From: Escherichia coli
Lineage (GTDB): Bacteria; Pseudomonadota; Gammaproteobacteria; Enterobacterales; Enterobacteriaceae
Assembly: GCF_002854065.1 (NCBI RefSeq)
Contig: NZ_CP024147.1
Strand: one strand, 5' to 3'
DNA: 64,000 nt
Part shown: positions 1 through 8,846 of the stretch, piece after piece
How the letters are laid out: every line of letters starts with the position of its first letter
Position numbering within the stretch: the first letter of the stretch is position 1
Made by a program: the position numbers and the translations under genes
Notes under the pieces: generated by a model
What the model saw: the letters and a program-made list of their open reading frames with translations, nothing else
The model's database searches: none
Told to the model about the DNA's origin: nothing

Positions 1-133
1 GGGTTAATTGCCCTGATGATTTAACTCGCTCATAGTTTTCTTTCGTTTTAAATAAAATATCTAAAACCAGTTCGTAAGGTCCGGCATTTTTCGAACGAAT
101 GACTTGCGCCAGTGAGACAATTGACTGTTTCAT
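1..133 (-). CDS. hypothetical protein, N-terminal fragment only (gene runs off the window start)
   Basis: Minus-strand ATG at 133..131 overlaps the TGA (132..130) of the upstream 456-aa ORF (ATGA coupling). Frame stays open to position 1 (MKQSIVSLAQVIRSKNAGPYELVLDILFKTKENYERVKSSGQLT...). Absent from the ORF track because it is truncated. Confidence 0.5.
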   Translation of the reverse strand, partial: MKQSIVSLAQVIRSKNAGPYELVLDILFKTKENYERVKSSGQLT

Positions 134-1500
134 GCCTGAACTCCTTCTGGCGTCACCTGTTCAATATGGAAATCAAAACGCAGAGCGTCGTTGGCTTCAA
201 TCAGGTGATATATGGAAAATTCGTATACCGGCCCGCCCTGGATATCAGAAGGGGAGAACGGGAACGCCAGGTTGCCTGCGGTAGCGATGCGGTTTTCATA
301 GCCGTAGTGCAGCATGGTAGAGCGCACCAGCGAGCAAACGCTATTGGCAATTTCCTGGGTCGGTGCAACTACATCAAGGACAATCCCCAGCTCATGCCCG
401 GCAGTTTGCATCGGTTCATGGTCGCCCATCACCCCGTTTTTACCGTACAGGTGGAAAATGATGCGAATGCTGTCATCGTCTAACGACAGGTTACGCGAAA
501 CGCTGGTTTTGACTTCATCGATGATTTTATCGATCCCGGCGATCATGATCGGGTCGCGCGTTCCGGCGATGGTCAGACAGCGGAAGCCCACCCGTCGCGC
601 ACCTTCCAGTTTCAGGGCATACGGCGTTTCTTCATGCTTAGAACCGCTGACGTACACTTCGCCGTCATTGACTGCTTTAAATGTGCAGCCTTTCAGGTTC
701 AACACGCCGCCAGGTCCTGGCAGGAAGTAGGGATCGGATTTCTCATACAGTGTGTGTGCAGCTGCTGACGTTTCGGTAAATTTACGCTTCGGATTAAATG
801 TCTTCAGCGTAAAGCCGTTGTCATCAATGATGCCCATCGCACAGTCAGAGCCTGAGCCGGGCGTTGCGGCGATTGCTGCGCACTCAAGGATTTTCCCACA
901 ATGCAGCGCCAGACCTTCATCAAAGCCTTGCATGATCGGTAGCGCAGCAAAGCAGGCCGGGTCGTAAGCGCGCCCACCCAGCACCACTTGCGCGCCTTCT
1001 TTCAGCGCCCGCTGGAAGGGTTCGATGCCCATTTGCGCGACGATATACGTACTTTCGTCAATCGCGTCGTGGGTTAACGGCGGGACAAAATCCAGCGCCG
1101 TGATTTTGCCGTTATCCAGCGCCTGGTGGACGATGGCTTTGTCAACGTCTGCCGGGATCAACGCCATCGAGAACGAGAGGTGCTCTTCCTGGGCAATCTC
1201 ATGAATTATTTCTCGGCACCACTCCAGGTGTGGTGCGGCACCAGAACCGCCAGCCGTTCCGATCACCACCGGTATATTATTTTGCACGCCTGCGGTGATC
1301 ATATAGCGCAGATCGCGCTTGACCCCTGCGCGATCGGTAAACGGTTTGCCTGCCCCGAGGTAGTGGGGGCCTGGATCGGAAGAGCCTGCATCAACGGCGA
1401 TCAGATCGGGCGATTCTGCCATCGCTTTACGGAAGCTCTCTTCCGGGAATCCATACCCGAGGATTGCCGTTGGCGATAAGACTTTAAAAGAACGAGCCAT
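130..1500 (-). CDS. uncharacterised 456-aa soluble protein co-operonic with methylaspartase (tentatively DUF1446/AtuA-like; family recalled, not searched)
   Basis: Long ORF MARSFKVLSPTAILGYGF...; start 4 nt downstream of the mal stop on the same strand; no hydrophobic TM stretch. Confidence 0.75.
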   Translation of the reverse strand: MARSFKVLSPTAILGYGFPEESFRKAMAESPDLIAVDAGSSDPGPHYLGAGKPFTDRAGVKRDLRYMITAGVQNNIPVVIGTAGGSGAAPHLEWCREIIHEIAQEEHLSFSMALIPADVDKAIVHQALDNGKITALDFVPPLTHDAIDESTYIVAQMGIEPFQRALKEGAQVVLGGRAYDPACFAALPIMQGFDEGLALHCGKILECAAIAATPGSGSDCAMGIIDDNGFTLKTFNPKRKFTETSAAAHTLYEKSDPYFLPGPGGVLNLKGCTFKAVNDGEVYVSGSKHEETPYALKLEGARRVGFRCLTIAGTRDPIMIAGIDKIIDEVKTSVSRNLSLDDDSIRIIFHLYGKNGVMGDHEPMQTAGHELGIVLDVVAPTQEIANSVCSLVRSTMLHYGYENRIATAGNLAFPFSPSDIQGGPVYEFSIYHLIEANDALRFDFHIEQVTPEGVQA

Positions 1501-1503
1501 TTG

Positions 1504-2745
1504 TTAATCCTTAGCCTGCAACAGCGCGATAGTACGATTCATTTCGTTGAAGACGATATCGAGGCCTTCGTCAAAACCCATCCCTGGTTTTACCAGCATA
1601 CGCATAGGGCGAGCGGCAAGGGCGACGTGGACACAGGTGCGGGCACTAACATCAGTTTCATTGCAGGTGCCGCCCTGGTACGCTTCCATGCTGTGGCTGT
1701 TGCAGTAAAGAACCGCATCGACGATGTTGTGAATACTTCCAAGATCCGGGGTTTTGATTTGCACCATGTGACAACTGGCGGCATCAGTGAAATCAACAAT
1801 ATCCTGGTAGGTGTTACACCATTCATCGGCCACAATTTTCACGCCGGAACCGAGGCGCGTCAGCTCTTTGGTAATCGCGGTCAGCAGGCGAATTTGGTCG
1901 GGCTTGTTACCGGCATCGACCGGCCCTTCAATGTAGAGCGGCAGGCCTTGCGCTTCTTTTTCCAGGCTGGCGATGTATTGCGCACAGCGAAGCGGATCCA
2001 TATCGAAGATCAGACCGATAGTGCCGTATACATCGATGTGCAGGGTAGGGTGGTAGCGTGCGCTGGTGCGCTTGCTCAGAATGCGATCCGACAGCCAGCG
2101 GACATATTCGCGCAGTTTTTCACCTTTAAAGCCCAGCTTCTCTTCGACGTTATTAATCAGCGCATGGGGCAGCACGTCGATGCCCTTAAGGATCATCTTA
2201 TCGACGGCGATATATCGATCGTCGCCGCTCTGGCCAAATAATGGAATGGATTCCGCCACGTGTGGCAACTGCCATTCATCACAGACCACTTCAGTTTTCA
2301 GACGGCCGGTTGCCAGCGCAGTAGCATCAAGCAGCGCCTGTGATAATCCGTAGCGCACGGCGGTATGCAGCAAGTTGCCGTCAATACGCAGTTTGTCGAA
2401 GAAACGGGCATTCGGCAGGAAAGCATCCACATCGCGGCCTACCAGTAATGGCTTGATATGGTCGTTGAGGAACGGAATAAAGTGCTCTGCGAGGAACAGT
2501 GGATCGCGACCACCTGCCCCGGAATACTGTACGGCAGCACAGTCACCTACAGCGACCGCGCCGTTTTCCAGAATCAACTGTACCGATACGCACTCCCCGG
2601 CCTGACGAACGGCGTTAAACCCCTGTGTTACCGGCTCCCCGGTATAAAAAAAGCCGTCATGACCCGCTCCGTTTTTTATCGCCTGCTGGTCATCGAAATA
2701 GAATGAGGAGTAGCCAGCGGTGAACAGAGCCTGTTTTATTTTCAT
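1504..2745 (-). CDS. mal: 3-methylaspartate ammonia-lyase (methylaspartase)
   Basis: 413 aa; MKIKQALFTAGYSSFYFDDQQAIKNGAGHDGF...CAAVQYSGAGGRDPLFLAEHFIP...VQIKTPDLG closely resembles clostridial methylaspartase as I recall it; start shares one nt with the glmE stop. Confidence 0.9.
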   Translation of the reverse strand: MKIKQALFTAGYSSFYFDDQQAIKNGAGHDGFFYTGEPVTQGFNAVRQAGECVSVQLILENGAVAVGDCAAVQYSGAGGRDPLFLAEHFIPFLNDHIKPLLVGRDVDAFLPNARFFDKLRIDGNLLHTAVRYGLSQALLDATALATGRLKTEVVCDEWQLPHVAESIPLFGQSGDDRYIAVDKMILKGIDVLPHALINNVEEKLGFKGEKLREYVRWLSDRILSKRTSARYHPTLHIDVYGTIGLIFDMDPLRCAQYIASLEKEAQGLPLYIEGPVDAGNKPDQIRLLTAITKELTRLGSGVKIVADEWCNTYQDIVDFTDAASCHMVQIKTPDLGSIHNIVDAVLYCNSHSMEAYQGGTCNETDVSARTCVHVALAARPMRMLVKPGMGFDEGLDIVFNEMNRTIALLQAKD

Positions 2746-4190
2746 TATGGTCTTTCTATTAATTTACTGTGGGATACAGCATTGATGTCATCTACAACCA
2801 TCTGGAATGTCGGTTGGCGTCCTTCAAAGCGTGCGCGTTCCGCGACGTAATCGTGGTGGAGGTCGAGAATATCTTTTGGCAATGGAACGGCTCCGGCTTC
2901 CAGTACGCGTATCGCGCCGGTGTTGTCACGGACCGGAAGAATATTGCCCGCGTTGCAGGCGGCTGGCGCAAACGGCACATCCAGTACGCCCGCTTCAAAT
3001 GCCAGCACCGTACCGCGCGCAATATCACCATTACCCAGTTCGAACACTTTATTCAGTACCGCGCGAACCTCGCTCTTAATCAGTTCAATTTCCAGTTCAA
3101 CCGCAGGGCACGGCGGGAATTTCTGCTCATTGACCATGTTGAGCATCTGGCGGGAGGCTTTCAGCCCCTGAATGTTGGCAGCGGCAGTCGGGATACCCCA
3201 GGCTTCGTGCGGACTTTTGGTGATGACTTTGGTGGCACCAGACATCCCCGCGACGGCTGCGCCCCAGGAGATAATAGCGAACGCTTTCGATTCGTCTTCC
3301 GGAAAGCCGCCCATCCACTGGTGAAACACGGTACTCAATTCATAGTCGGTATAGCCATAGCTCTGAAAGTATTCGTGTGCAAGTTCACGCAGAGACTGGA
3401 TCGCCGCAACATCCTGCGTCAGGCTGCCGACCTGGCCATAACCAACGGTGATAGATTTCACACCCTGTTCCAGTGCCAGCAAGCCTTCGATTATCGCGAT
3501 AGAGTGCGAGATAAACGGCGGGATCAGCGTACCCGTTAGTGGGCCAAACGGTTCGCGGTTGATGCGGATCCCGTGTTCTTCATACATCCCCATTAAACGG
3601 TCGCAGTACTGCCAGTCGCGGATCGATTTTTCCAGCGTTACGCGTTTGGCATACGGAATGTTGTAGGAAATGCCACCGCCTTCATAACTGGTAAAGCCGC
3701 TGGCCATTGAGATTTCAGCCAGCAGACGCGCATCTGGCGTGCCGTGGCGGATCTGTAGCGGTTTTTGCAGGGTTTCGGTGAGGCGACGGCAAGCTGCGAC
3801 ACCATGGTTAACTACCGGTAAACCGTTCAGTTTAGAGGTTCCGGCTTCGATGGATTTTTTAATCCCTACAGCCGCTTCTTCGTACCGATTCAGACGGGTA
3901 TATGCATCGATGGTGCTTGGCAGCAGATCGCACTCTTCTTGTAGTGTTTTCAGCAGTTCGATGTGTTCGTCCATCAGCGCCACACCTGCGCGCGGTTGGC
4001 TAAGGGTTTTACCTTCCTTGTCTGCTTTCAGCAGCGCAAGAGAGAAGCGTTTATGCTCAGGGATGGTTTGTTGGTATTTAACGCCATCTTCAAAGATTTC
4101 AACATCCTTGCCGGTTTCCCAGGTTTTCAGTACCTGTTGCCGCTCGGTCATGAATTCGTCATGGGTTAATTTCTTATTTCGAAGTTCCAT
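2745..4190 (-). CDS. glmE: glutamate mutase E (epsilon, catalytic) subunit
   Basis: 481 aa, MELRNKKLTHDEFMTERQQVLKTWETGKDV...; size and N-terminus match methylaspartate mutase E chain; sits between glmL and mal. Confidence 0.88.
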   Translation of the reverse strand: MELRNKKLTHDEFMTERQQVLKTWETGKDVEIFEDGVKYQQTIPEHKRFSLALLKADKEGKTLSQPRAGVALMDEHIELLKTLQEECDLLPSTIDAYTRLNRYEEAAVGIKKSIEAGTSKLNGLPVVNHGVAACRRLTETLQKPLQIRHGTPDARLLAEISMASGFTSYEGGGISYNIPYAKRVTLEKSIRDWQYCDRLMGMYEEHGIRINREPFGPLTGTLIPPFISHSIAIIEGLLALEQGVKSITVGYGQVGSLTQDVAAIQSLRELAHEYFQSYGYTDYELSTVFHQWMGGFPEDESKAFAIISWGAAVAGMSGATKVITKSPHEAWGIPTAAANIQGLKASRQMLNMVNEQKFPPCPAVELEIELIKSEVRAVLNKVFELGNGDIARGTVLAFEAGVLDVPFAPAACNAGNILPVRDNTGAIRVLEAGAVPLPKDILDLHHDYVAERARFEGRQPTFQMVVDDINAVSHSKLIERP

Positions 4191-4208: not shown

Positions 4209-5597
4209 TTATAGGGTTAAGCATTGAATACTGGTGCGCGCGGCGGCCAGCGGATCGACTCTGGCGACGTTTGCCAGCAGTGGTAATAGCCCCCGGGAAT
4301 CGCGGTAATATTCAAATTCGGTCGGTAAGAGAATGCGTTTACCGTCGTCGTTTAACTCGCGGTATTTCAACCAGTGATGCATATCGAACTGACTGGCACG
4401 CGAGAGCCATCCGCCGGATCCGACGACTTTACGCACGGTTGTCAGGTCACGTCCCATCTGTAAATCGACATTGCCGACGCAGGTGCAGACCTCTTTTTTG
4501 GTGCCCGCATGTCTTTCGGTGGCATAACCCACACACAGTCCGGCCAGGACGGTATCGAAATATTTCTCTTCTGCATTTGCGGGTAAGTAGTCGGGATGAG
4601 CGACTAGATGACGGAGGTAATGATAAAAAGCGTCCAGCTGTGCGGGTTGCTGAGCAAAATTCACATTGACTAACTCTTTCGCACTTTCACCAACCACCAC
4701 TGCCGAGACGCGCATTCCCAGATCGCCTTCCACCGTCCGTTTTACGAAGGGTTCCGGTACGCCGTGTAAAACGGTGTCGGGCGAGAGCGTGTTGGCACAG
4801 GCGGAATAAACATCGGTGGTTGCGCCGCCCATGTCGATCAGCATGAACTCTTTCCAGCTGTGATCGACGTTACTGATTGCCTTGACCAGTTCAAAGACCG
4901 TCCATGGTGTCGGCATTGGTTCTTCGCCTGTTTTATCAACAATGACATCCAGCCCTTTCCCTTTAACGATGCGTTTAAGGAATATGTCGCAAATAGCCTG
5001 GCGTGCGGCTAAAGGGTTCGGATGGTCAAGATCGGGCAGAACATTGTCGACGATGGTCAGGTCTTTATGCCCGAGGATCTCCTGCACCTCGTCCTGAATA
5101 TCCCGGTTTCCGGCATAAATAATGGCGCAGTCGAGTTTGGATTCTGCCAGCACACGGGCGTTATTCAGTCCGTAGCTTTCTTCTCCGCCGTCGGTGCCGC
5201 CGGTGAACAAGAGAATATCGGGCTGCGTTTCTTCCAGTGCCTGGATATCACGGCGGTTCAGCTTGTAGGCGTAATATTGCGCAATTTTAGCACCCGCAGA
5301 GTGAGCGGTTACTTTCGCGGTTTCCAGGGTGATAGAAGGCACCAATCCCATTGCGGCAACCGCCAGCCCACCTTTGGCAGAGGAGGAATACTTCAATGCA
5401 ACCTCACCGCTGTTTAACAGGGGGAGGGCATTATCTACGTTTAACACCTGGTTCAGGCTGGAGAAAAACCCCTTCGCCAGATGATGGGTGGTGGTTGGGG
5501 TCAGTACGTGGTTAACCAACGTTAACGCGTCCCCCTCCCGGGTGAAGAGGGCTGCTTTGGTCCACGTCGATCCAATATCGACAGAGACGATTTGCAT
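4209..5597 (-). CDS. glmL: glutamate mutase accessory protein (MutL/GlmL-like, ATPase-fold putative reactivase)
   Basis: 462 aa, [18 protein letters not shown]... (actin/hexokinase-like N-terminal phosphate motif); located between S and E subunit genes as in clostridial mutS-mutL-mutE. Confidence 0.8.
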   Translation of the reverse strand: MQIVSVDIGSTWTKAALFTREGDALTLVNHVLTPTTTHHLAKGFFSSLNQVLNVDNALPLLNSGEVALKYSSSAKGGLAVAAMGLVPSITLETAKVTAHSAGAKIAQYYAYKLNRRDIQALEETQPDILLFTGGTDGGEESYGLNNARVLAESKLDCAIIYAGNRDIQDEVQEILGHKDLTIVDNVLPDLDHPNPLAARQAICDIFLKRIVKGKGLDVIVDKTGEEPMPTPWTVFELVKAISNVDHSWKEFMLIDMGGATTDVYSACANTLSPDTVLHGVPEPFVKRTVEGDLGMRVSAVVVGESAKELVNVNFAQQPAQLDAFYHYLRHLVAHPDYLPANAEEKYFDTVLAGLCVGYATERHAGTKKEVCTCVGNVDLQMGRDLTTVRKVVGSGGWLSRASQFDMHHWLKYRELNDDGKRILLPTEFEYYRDSRGLLPLLANVARVDPLAAARTSIQCLTL

Positions 5598-6046
5598 CAG
5601 ATAGCCTCTTCAAGAATACGAGTATCAACGTCATGACGTTGGTTGATATCGTGGGCCATCAGCTGACAAACATCTTCTAAGTCATGACTTGGGGCAAAGA
5701 CGCGATCAAATCCCATCTCTTTGAATTTGGTTTCCACGTCAGCGAAGTCATGTTTTCCGACCACCAGGTTACCGCCCACATAGAGCAGGATGTCCCCCAG
5801 TCCACGCTCGATGCAGCGTTCGCGCATGCCCAGACAGTCGATATCGCCATGCCCATAGATAGAGGAGACGACAATCGCGTCAGCGCCAGTTTCAATGGCC
5901 GCATCAATATATTCGTCCTGGCTGACCATTACGCCCAGATTAATGACTCTGAAGTCGTGGTTGCTAAAAACGCGGTCCAGAACTTTATTGCCTACTGCAT
6001 GGCAGTCCGCGCCAATAACGCCAATCACAAGTGTTGCTTTCTTCAT
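5597..6046 (-). CDS. glutamate mutase S (sigma, cobalamin-binding) subunit; symbol left blank because glmS/mutS clash with unrelated E. coli genes
   Basis: [23 protein letters not shown]... carries the DxHxxG B12-binding signature; start moved from track ORF 6109 to ATG 6046 with AAGGA RBS 7 nt upstream; stop shares one nt with glmL start. Confidence 0.85.
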
Positions 6047-6592
6047 GGGTAATCCTTTGTAAGACAGAGAGTAAAATAAGTTACACACGTCGTATTTATG
6101 GCCGTTCATAACGGCACAGGTTTAATATCACAGGAGTGTCTTTATCTGACCGTAATGTTGCAATTGATCTATTTTCAAAATGTCTTTCGGGAAATGATTG
6201 TTTAAAGTGTGTTTTTAAATTCCCATGTTAATTCAGTATGTTATGTCAACTAATGTCATGAATGTTAAATTTTTAAAATTAACTTGATTTAATGTATTGA
6301 GATAATTGTGATCTACTTCTAATTTGCATTTTAGTGATATGGGTTTAGCCATGAGTAAATGCATTTCATAAAATTTAAGTCGAATTTCACTGCAATTCAT
6401 CTCTGCTTAATGTAAAAATAATGTTGAAAATAACAAATGGTTAATGATTCATGCGAATTATGACGTTAGTTAGCTCTTTTGATTTTTCGTAAAAAAGAGA
6501 GGTACATGAAGGTGCTACCAGTATGAGTAACGTTAATCAAAGGTTTTATTACGTCTGGCAATAACGCAGGCCATTTTCGCGACTGGGTGGAT

Positions 6593-7015
6593 TTAATCAG
6601 TATAATCCTCATACAATATTTCAGGATTAACTGAACCGTTAACCGGGTTTTGGTGTTGAAATTTAGAAATGGCGGAGTCAATCAATGAAGACAGTATCGA
6701 AAAAATAACTGTGTCAGAACTAATTTCAATTAATCCTTCTCGTTGTTGACCAAAAAAGATATTTATCTTGATTTCATTTGTACTACGGCAATCAATATGT
6801 AGTAATTTTTGATCGCTGAGATTTTCTGTTTCATAAATGTTTTTGGCGATAGTCGGATGTATTGATGCCAGACATCTGCTCAGATAAGCCAGATCCTTTA
6901 GGGAACACCCCGCTGAGTAGAGGATGTCAGAGAATTTTTGTGTGTCAACTGTTGTCTCTGAAGCGTATGTTGCATTGACAGGAAGGGTGTTGAAAGAGAT
7001 TTGAGATGGGATCAT
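6593..7015 (-). CDS. hypothetical acidic 140-aa protein, unknown function
   Basis: Intact ORF in AT-rich DNA; net negative charge (about 17 D/E vs 9 K/R); no TM segment; GGAAAG about 9 nt upstream of ATG; co-directional with the 314-aa ORF 81 bp upstream. Confidence 0.6.
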   Translation of the reverse strand: MIPSQISFNTLPVNATYASETTVDTQKFSDILYSAGCSLKDLAYLSRCLASIHPTIAKNIYETENLSDQKLLHIDCRSTNEIKINIFFGQQREGLIEISSDTVIFSILSSLIDSAISKFQHQNPVNGSVNPEILYEDYTD

Positions 7016-7096
7016 TATTTAAATCTTTCCGTGAGTAATAAAAATTAATCCCCAGGCATTGTTTAACAATATTTGCCATAGGGGATATATAGAAAA

Positions 7097-8041
7097 TTAA
7101 AGTATTTTATTGGCTTCGGTTAACTGATCTATAACCAGTGCCAGATTGGTAAACATTTTGAAAAAGCGATACTGGCTCGGAATATCTCTTTCAAAGACGA
7201 AACATTCAAGGTCATTGTTTGAAAAATAAAGGACTAGTGTTGCTGATTCGTCAGGGAAAACATGGAAATGTATCTGGTTACCAGAAGGAGGATAGTCCAG
7301 AAGAAGGGTATCTTTGCCCGTCACATACCTGTTGTTGTCGTGGACGCTACGCTCACACTTCATCAGAGGTGTCAGGATACTCATGTATTCATCTGATGTT
7401 AATTTATTAAAATCATCATTCATTTTAAAGAAACGATAAAGTAACAGTACATCCTCTTGCGTAACCGGTTCGTTTGTTTTTAGAGGGAAATAAGCGGGAA
7501 CCAGAAGATGAGGTTCTAATCTATTTTGTTGAGCGCTATAACTGAATTTGAACATAAATTCCGGATCGCTCATCAATTGAGCGACATAATTATGCCTGGC
7601 TTCGAAAATTTTAATTTTTATCAGGTTAAATAAGTCTGTTTCGTCATCCTGTATTAAAAGACATTGGCCATAGCAGCCAGGCTTTTTTTCATTATAAGCA
7701 GAAACGGTTATTCTGTCAGAGGTGTCAACGTTATATTCAAAAGCCAGATAGTGACCTTCTTCATCGCGATTTGTTTCCAGGTTATTTAAATTCATCACAT
7801 GAAGTGTTTGCAATGCTGATTCAATGAGCTGTTGACTCTCTGAGGTAAATGTTTCGCGCTGCGTTGTATAAAGTGTATCAATTCCAACGACTATCCGATG
7901 TGGGTCAAGGATGGCGGCAATCATCTTTATTACCTGCACAGTCACGGGTGATGTCATTGATTCTTTATCTGTTTTTAGAGAATCATTAGATGGCCAACCT
8001 GAGAAGCGATTGACAGCCGAACCGATATTATCAGGACTCAT
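7097..8041 (-). CDS. hypothetical 314-aa protein, unknown function
   Basis: Intact ORF in AT-rich DNA; GAGG 8 nt upstream of ATG; Ser/Thr/Asn-rich N-terminus; no TM segment, P-loop or HEXXH motif; not recognisable as any K-12 protein. Confidence 0.7.
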   Translation of the reverse strand: MSPDNIGSAVNRFSGWPSNDSLKTDKESMTSPVTVQVIKMIAAILDPHRIVVGIDTLYTTQRETFTSESQQLIESALQTLHVMNLNNLETNRDEEGHYLAFEYNVDTSDRITVSAYNEKKPGCYGQCLLIQDDETDLFNLIKIKIFEARHNYVAQLMSDPEFMFKFSYSAQQNRLEPHLLVPAYFPLKTNEPVTQEDVLLLYRFFKMNDDFNKLTSDEYMSILTPLMKCERSVHDNNRYVTGKDTLLLDYPPSGNQIHFHVFPDESATLVLYFSNNDLECFVFERDIPSQYRFFKMFTNLALVIDQLTEANKIL

Positions 8042-8495
8042 AGCAGCAACCTCATTGTAATCAAGCGAGGCGCTGAGCGTACTCGGCTATAGAAAAACTA
8101 ACTTGCAAAAATCGCTCATTTTTCATTTATCAGGCGAAAGTGGTCTCTGTACACTCAGAAACAATCACTCCCGCTAAGTCATACCTGTTTCATCGATACA
8201 TTTAAGTGATTATTACTAATGAAACAATAACATAACGGGCTTACGGTCGGTGCTCATAAAGGCAACAATCAATTAACTTTGATAAAAATATGTTATGTAA
8301 AATAGCAACAAATTGGCTACTCTAATCAATTGGTATTATAAAAAGTGGATAAGGCGGTTCTGTTAAATAAAATACTGGTTTTTTATCTATACCTTTTCAT
8401 TGTAATAATTGTGTTGCATAAATATTTCACAATAAATTAACAATAAAATCACCAATGATCTATGGTTTATACATAATTAACATATTTGGTTGGTT

Positions 8496-8509
8496 TTGAT
8501 ATAAATCAA
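8496..8509 (+). promoter_or_regulatory. FNR-type site TTGAT-N4-ATCAA in cydA upstream region
   Basis: Perfect palindrome ttgatataaatcaa; cydAB is known to be FNR/ArcA controlled. Confidence 0.6.
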
Positions 8510-8846
8510 TTTTTAATTCTTGAAAAAAATCTGCAAAACACGATAAATTGTCGTAGATCAAATTGATGAGATCGTGACAATTTCGCTATAAATTGATCAC
8601 TGTCGAAAAATGCAAATTTGCTCAATAAAAACCTGTTTATTGTAAGGATTTTGCGGCGTAATATAATTACGGGATCAATTTGGTTTATTCATTAACATAT
8701 TTGTAACTTTTTTATCATTGTCTTTTCCTCTTTTGATGAAATGGCAACGATAGGGGCGAGCAAATAATTTTGTATTGGGGCATGCGTGTGACCCTTTCTA
8801 ACGGGGTTCACTCTCGGAGTCTTCATGCGATGAGCAAGGAGTCATG

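Follow-up and report, generated by a model that had tools for sequence, protein, structure and literature searches.

The classical citramalate lyase of Clostridium tetanomorphum (EC 4.1.3.22) is a CitDEF-like complex that contains an acyl carrier protein and has an acetyl-thioester as prosthetic group, and its genes cluster with the glm, mal and mesaconase genes (PMC4682846). In the (S)-citramalyl-CoA lyase route of itaconate and mesaconate degradation a CoA transferase and a Ccl/CitE-like lyase carry the carbon of citramalate to pyruvate and a C2 unit, and most enterobacteria do not have the proteins of this route (PMC4682846). AtuA of Pseudomonas and Thauera has been proposed to cleave a tertiary alcohol with a CH2-COO- arm with release of acetate (PMC4847356), and no biochemical proof of AtuA activity was found in the literature searched. 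Kronen and Berg reported in 2015 on an island of enterobacteria that encodes glutamate mutase, methylaspartase and FumD, and showed that FumD is an efficient mesaconase which makes (S)-citramalate (PMC4682846); the fate of this (S)-citramalate was the gap left at that time. The closest described system, CmlAB, is more recent. Two crystal structures have been released, PDB 9EVF on 2025-10-08 with the title 'Citramalate lyase - ADP - pyruvate complex' and PDB 9ERQ on 2025-10-22 with the title 'Citramalate lyase - AMPPNP - citramalate complex', and these titles place an adenine nucleotide in the crystals together with the product or the substrate. The depositors named chain A 'Citramalate lyase, subunit A (cmlA)' and chain B 'Citramalate lyase, subunit B (cmlB)'. 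It has also been reported that cmlAB of Raoultella planticola acts in vivo as a CoA-independent enzyme that converts citramalate to pyruvate and acetate, that an E. coli acetyl-CoA auxotroph carrying a cmlAB plasmid grows on mesaconate and no longer does so once cured of the plasmid, and that isotope labelling in the cmlAB-carrying auxotroph was as expected (bioRxiv 10.64898/2026.01.16.699985).

The window, which is the whole stretch of 64,000 nucleotides that was analysed, is E. coli chromosome and was 100% identical to that of strain CUWW06 across the 2.8 kb that was queried. The genes described here lie on the minus strand, and their coordinates come from the open reading frames and, for the upstream genes, from the RefSeq annotation of the identical genome. 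The first gene of the operon is glmS (5597..6046, start as in RefSeq), which encodes the B12-binding subunit S of glutamate mutase, and it is followed by glmL (4209..5597) for the accessory or reactivating protein of the MutL family, glmE (2745..4190) for subunit E of the glutamate (methylaspartate) mutase, and mal (1504..2745) for the 413-aa methylaspartate ammonia-lyase, which acts two reactions before CmlAB in the pathway. The longest open reading frame for glmS would be 170 aa, with an ATG at 6109 that is 21 codons beyond the RefSeq start at 6046. The mal stop codon TAA at 1506..1504 is followed by 3 nt (CAA) and then by the ATG at 1500..1498 of a gene for a 456-aa protein (130..1500), which we call cmlA. 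A Shine-Dalgarno sequence, AAGGA, for cmlA is found inside the 3' end of mal at 1508..1512, 7 nt before the ATG. The cmlA stop codon TGA at 132..130 overlaps the ATG at 133..131 of the next gene, cmlB, so that the four bases ATGA at 130..133 (read 133..130) are common to the two genes, an arrangement of translational coupling, and the Shine-Dalgarno sequence AAGGAG for cmlB is inside the 3' end of cmlA at 141..146, again 7 nt before the ATG. Only the 5' part of cmlB (1..133), with the first 44 of its 105 codons, is in the window and the remainder is past the window edge. The original prediction had described a 456-aa reading frame coupled to mal, an ATGA overlap and a further reading frame leaving the window, and the reading of the sequence confirmed all three; the full downstream gene, retrieved from the identical CUWW06 chromosome (L001 11816..12133), encodes a DUF4387 protein of 105 aa. 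Both reading frames can be regarded as real genes and not as chance reading frames because the 456-aa protein has 6595 homologues at E <= 1e-5, its cluster at 90% identity has 5597 members, and the genes are present in 1122 E. coli genomes. When the operon was scanned for promoters and terminators, promoter-like sites were fewer than in shuffled sequence and there was no convincing internal terminator.

The sole Pfam match of CmlA was to AtuA/DUF1446 (PF07287), over residues 63-392 with an E value of 2.8e-18 and a moderate score of 66 bits, and CmlB was assigned to DUF4387 (PF14330) from the precomputed domain of its 99%-identity cluster and from its RefSeq product name. The tentative assignment to a DUF1446/AtuA-like protein with a small partner was thus correct. 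As of June 2026, NCBIfam had no model that matched either subunit, and CmlA showed no fold that could be recognised as a kinase or as ATP-grasp. When the two proteins were compared with the sequences of solved structures, CmlA matched chain A of PDB 9ERQ/9EVF over residues 1-456 with about 92% identity (E 4.8e-293) and CmlB matched chain B over its full length (E 5.2e-57). Furthermore, E. coli CmlA retains all the residues that are invariant across its clade and the wider family. The homology of CmlA is full-length, a DUF4387 homologue of CmlB is encoded directly downstream, and in the genome the pair lies with the genes for glutamate mutase, methylaspartase and a mesaconase of the class I fumarase type, and therefore on every feature tested the E. 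coli genes are members of the CmlAB type, the crystallised enzyme being from a different species. We conclude that the two genes are, with high probability, cmlA and cmlB of a two-subunit citramalate lyase that needs neither CoA nor acyl carrier protein. The functional name rests on the titles and molecule names of the PDB entries and on one preprint from another laboratory on the Raoultella orthologue; the enzyme in that preprint is the Raoultella planticola CmlAB of the Berg laboratory, and the E. coli pair is known here from its sequence. The view that the two genes were uncharacterised and had no established biochemical role is out of date, since orthologues have been crystallised, named citramalate lyase A and B, and used in vivo. 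The citramalate lyase function of the pair was already known from the structures of October 2025 and from the in vivo use, and the E. coli genes are ordinary orthologues.

CmlAB and the classical citramalate lyase have the same net reaction, from (S)-citramalate to pyruvate and acetate, and the same terminal position in the pathway, and the genes of both cluster with glm, mal and mesaconase genes, but the two enzymes are analogous and without homology. The CitD (acyl carrier protein), CitE (lyase) and CitF (transferase) domains were absent from CmlA in the Pfam scan, and there were no citCDEFXG genes in the island within the 26.8 kb around the operon. Unlike the classical enzyme, CmlAB does not require a CoA-type prosthetic group and has an adenine nucleotide bound instead, as the PDB titles and the preprint indicate. 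The (S)-citramalyl-CoA lyase route differs from CmlAB in that it needs CoA activation, gives acetyl-CoA, and uses unrelated proteins.

CmlB was searched against 1.8 billion representative proteins, and many of the matches were proteins of about 530-735 aa with DUF4387 as their C-terminal domain. In the relatives tested by BLASTP, the N-terminal 440-450 or so residues of these fused proteins were CmlA-like with 29-47% identity, and for one of the fusions, from a fungal contig, PF07287 and PF14330 are both recorded. This fungal fusion (L008 7001-9630, GCA_004117975) is 608 aa long and has introns, and an acetate kinase gene is situated about 7 kb away. Thauera AtuA, with a reported 615 aa, is within the size range of the fusions (PMC4847356). 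These single-chain fusions are in agreement with the crystal complex and confirm that CmlA and CmlB belong to one enzyme, and because the two are fused in one chain in many relatives, CmlB (DUF4387) is taken to be an obligatory partner domain of CmlA.

In E. coli CUWW06 the order of the genes on one strand is glmS, glmL, glmE, mal, cmlA, cmlB and then, after a gap of 160 nt, a symporter gene annotated as of the dicarboxylate/amino acid:cation type, a class I fumarate hydratase gene, and cobO. A divergent gene for a LysR regulator follows cobO, and the whole island is between sucD and cydA. The 2.8-kb stretch was found at 95-100% identity in 1122 of the 5426 complete E. coli genomes, and the glmS-glmL-glmE-mal-cmlA-cmlB operon sits in an accessory island of about one fifth of E. 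coli genomes. This island corresponds to that of Kronen and Berg, who reported that about 91% of O157:H7 strains have the glm/mal genes (PMC4682846). The class I fumarate hydratase, FumD, is encoded by a separate gene (L001 8615..10267) about 2 kb past the window edge. In the pathway the B12-dependent mutase GlmSE, helped by GlmL, would first turn L-glutamate into 3-methylaspartate; Mal would convert 3-methylaspartate to mesaconate, FumD, encoded just past the window, would convert mesaconate to (S)-citramalate, and CmlAB would split (S)-citramalate to pyruvate and acetate. The original prediction had listed a mesaconase and a citramalate lyase as the enzymes needed after mesaconate; what it did not do was to assign the citramalate lyase to the pair itself, and the mesaconase is FumD past the window. 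The assignment of CmlAB fills the gap that was left in 2015 for enterobacteria with the glutamate mutase/methylaspartase/FumD island, and once CmlAB is included, the route from glutamate to pyruvate, acetate and ammonia would be complete in about a fifth of E. coli genomes, which is relevant to gut colonisation.

The linkage of the pair with glm/mal was noted earlier for enterobacteria and Dictyoglomus (PMC4682846), and in Prevotella intermedia mal is listed just before two 'AtuA family protein' genes among the genes regulated by iron availability (PMC10434189). We checked the linkage for three CmlA homologues with 62-66% identity, one from a metagenome contig, one from Candidatus Rifleibacterium and one from a 5.5-Mb genome. 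The order of the genes for the B12-binding subunit, MutL, mutase E, methylaspartase, AtuA and DUF4387 was kept in all three of these distant bacterial contigs, the orthologues of the gene that precedes cmlA, mal, had MAAL_N/MAAL_C domains, and a class I fumarase was nearby in two of the three (Candidatus Rifleibacterium and the 5.5-Mb genome). Lack of this linkage in other genomes had been set beforehand as what would count against the pair acting with the methylaspartate pathway; the linkage with glmS-glmL-glmE-mal is conserved across distant bacteria and that claim was correct. In the non-enteric clusters a third conserved gene, for a protein of 313-318 aa, comes directly after cmlB (L002 9698-10654, L004 9712-10665 and L005 9677-10618). 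A Walker-A motif, GAEGSGKST, is present in this protein of about 315 aa, which is 62-72% identical across the distant contigs; it had no Pfam or NCBIfam family and no solved relative beyond weak P-loop matches, and neither the E. coli window nor the 26.8-kb locus L001 has its gene. It may be an accessory NTPase of the pathway. A CmlA/CmlB-like pair with overlapping genes and 57% identity to CmlA was also found on a 2.8-kb contig (L007 972-2656), where the gene upstream is not mal and is a fragment resembling an ABC1/UbiB kinase. This hints that close relatives of CmlAB may serve other pathways or substrates; L007 and L006, the contigs with more distant DUF4387 proteins, are too short to define such pathways.

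The existence of such a pair without an adjoining mal leads to the question whether the E. coli orthologues are cryptic or act mainly on something besides citramalate derived from glutamate, for example on another 2-hydroxy-2-alkyl dicarboxylate that enters by the adjacent symporter, since relatives with other roles probably exist. It is also in favour of this explanation that Kronen and Berg obtained neither induction of the cluster nor fermentation of glutamate in E. coli O157 (PMC4682846). Against it is that the genes are intact, coupled, and maintained at 95-100% identity in the 1122 genomes, and that the pair is in one operon with glm/mal, together with FumD, which is efficient at making (S)-citramalate (PMC4682846). 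The near identity (about 92%) of CmlA to a crystallised citramalate lyase and the retention of all the invariant residues also argue against it, and we therefore consider it improbable, although with a small probability left to it, that the E. coli pair has no role or a different role.

It is still less probable that the large protein is a terpene-pathway lyase of the AtuA type acting on a CoA ester. In its favour, CmlA has the Pfam match to AtuA, and AtuA of Pseudomonas and Thauera has been tentatively assigned as such a lyase (PMC4847356), with an analogous chemistry. CmlA and AtuA also have a set of invariant residues in common, and in relatives about as long as AtuA (about 600 aa) the C-terminal domain is a DUF4387 counterpart of CmlB. 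The score of the Pfam match is moderate, however, and AtuA is one fused chain of about 600 aa with a CoA-ester substrate in terpene catabolism; the 615-aa length of Thauera AtuA is that of the fused relatives, those tested being only 29-47% identical to CmlA. There are no atu genes for a carboxylase, a hydratase or an acyl-CoA dehydrogenase in the island, and the crystallisation of a near-identical orthologue with citramalate and with pyruvate effectively refutes this reading. The database names '3-methylaspartate ammonia-lyase [Salmonella enterica]' and 'putative 3-methylaspartate ammonia-lyase, glutamate mutase' would make the large protein another methylaspartate ammonia-lyase or a component of glutamate mutase, which we give almost no probability, because MAAL_N/MAAL_C and mutase domains were lacking in the Pfam scan, which gave AtuA only, the gene just before it is the true mal, and the annotation was already flagged as unexplained by Kronen and Berg (PMC4682846). 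It had been claimed from the N-termini that neither reading frame is a class I fumarase, and this is right; in CmlA the Fumerase and Fumerase_C domains are absent, and a mesaconase identity for CmlA was rejected on this ground, the true class I fumarase being FumD from its separate gene.

For cleavage of the C2-C3 bond of citramalate a carbanion must form next to the C4 carboxylate, and a free carboxylate strongly disfavours this; the classical citrate and citramalate lyases overcome this problem by means of a thioester to an acyl carrier protein. For CmlAB, the ligand pairs in the crystals, AMPPNP with citramalate and ADP with pyruvate, together with this chemistry, suggest activation as an acyl phosphate. 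ATP would phosphorylate the C4 carboxylate of citramalate to give citramalyl phosphate, in which the C3 carbanion becomes accessible, citramalyl phosphate would break down into acetyl phosphate and pyruvate, and ADP would take the phosphoryl group back, so that the net reaction would be from citramalate to pyruvate and acetate. The nucleotide could instead be structural or regulatory, and the preprint gives the net reaction without mention of ATP. From the ligand pairs and the chemistry we regard an acyl-phosphate mechanism and direct cleavage with a structural or regulatory nucleotide as about evenly balanced. The proximity of the fungal fusion to an acetate kinase gene is weak evidence for the acetyl-phosphate idea, given the distance and the intervening genes. 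A wider proposal, in which ATP would be a recycled cofactor that replaces the acetyl-thioester group in CmlAB, in which this may extend to the AtuA+DUF4387 superfamily, and in which the P-loop protein of about 315 aa is a possible accessory factor, is put forward as tentative and is rather doubtful as a whole. The residues that do not vary between CmlA and its fused relatives in fungi and bacteria include, in CmlA numbering, D37-x-G39-S40-x-D42-x-G44-P45, D63, G84-G85-x-G87 with H91, Q156, E160, R177, D180, H200-x-G202-K203-x-x-E206-C207, H249 and E253, and these are candidates for the binding of the nucleotide and the substrate.

CmlAB is a compact CoA-independent citramalate lyase that is already in use in synthetic pathways, and the naming in RefSeq, UniRef and NCBIfam is behind. 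In the databases CmlA orthologues go by the names 'AtuA family', 'DUF1446' or '3-methylaspartate ammonia-lyase' and those of CmlB by 'DUF4387', with one UniRef cluster named 'Acyl-CoA synthetase'. The names 'methylaspartate ammonia-lyase' and 'acyl-CoA synthetase' are errors, and the old names of both proteins can now be replaced. Besides the correction of the annotation, the remaining value of the locus lies in the putative role of the nucleotide and in the largely unexplored AtuA+DUF4387 superfamily, which includes the fusions of about 600 aa in Pseudomonas and Thauera (AtuA) and in fungi, most of them without a proven substrate.

Finally, an AT-rich segment lies at 6100-8800 in the window, between glmS and cydA, with 35-37% GC compared to 50-55% in the glm/mal operon. 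It has two hypothetical reading frames on the minus strand, at 6593..7015 (140 aa) and 7097..8041 (314 aa), neither with an NCBIfam match. At the far edge of the island, outside the window in strain CUWW06, an IS1B transposase gene (L001 6066-6763) lies between sucD and the LysR regulator gene. The full AT-rich segment is present in 1134 E. coli genomes, close to the island's own count, and because the two counts are nearly equal the segment seems to be part of the island.
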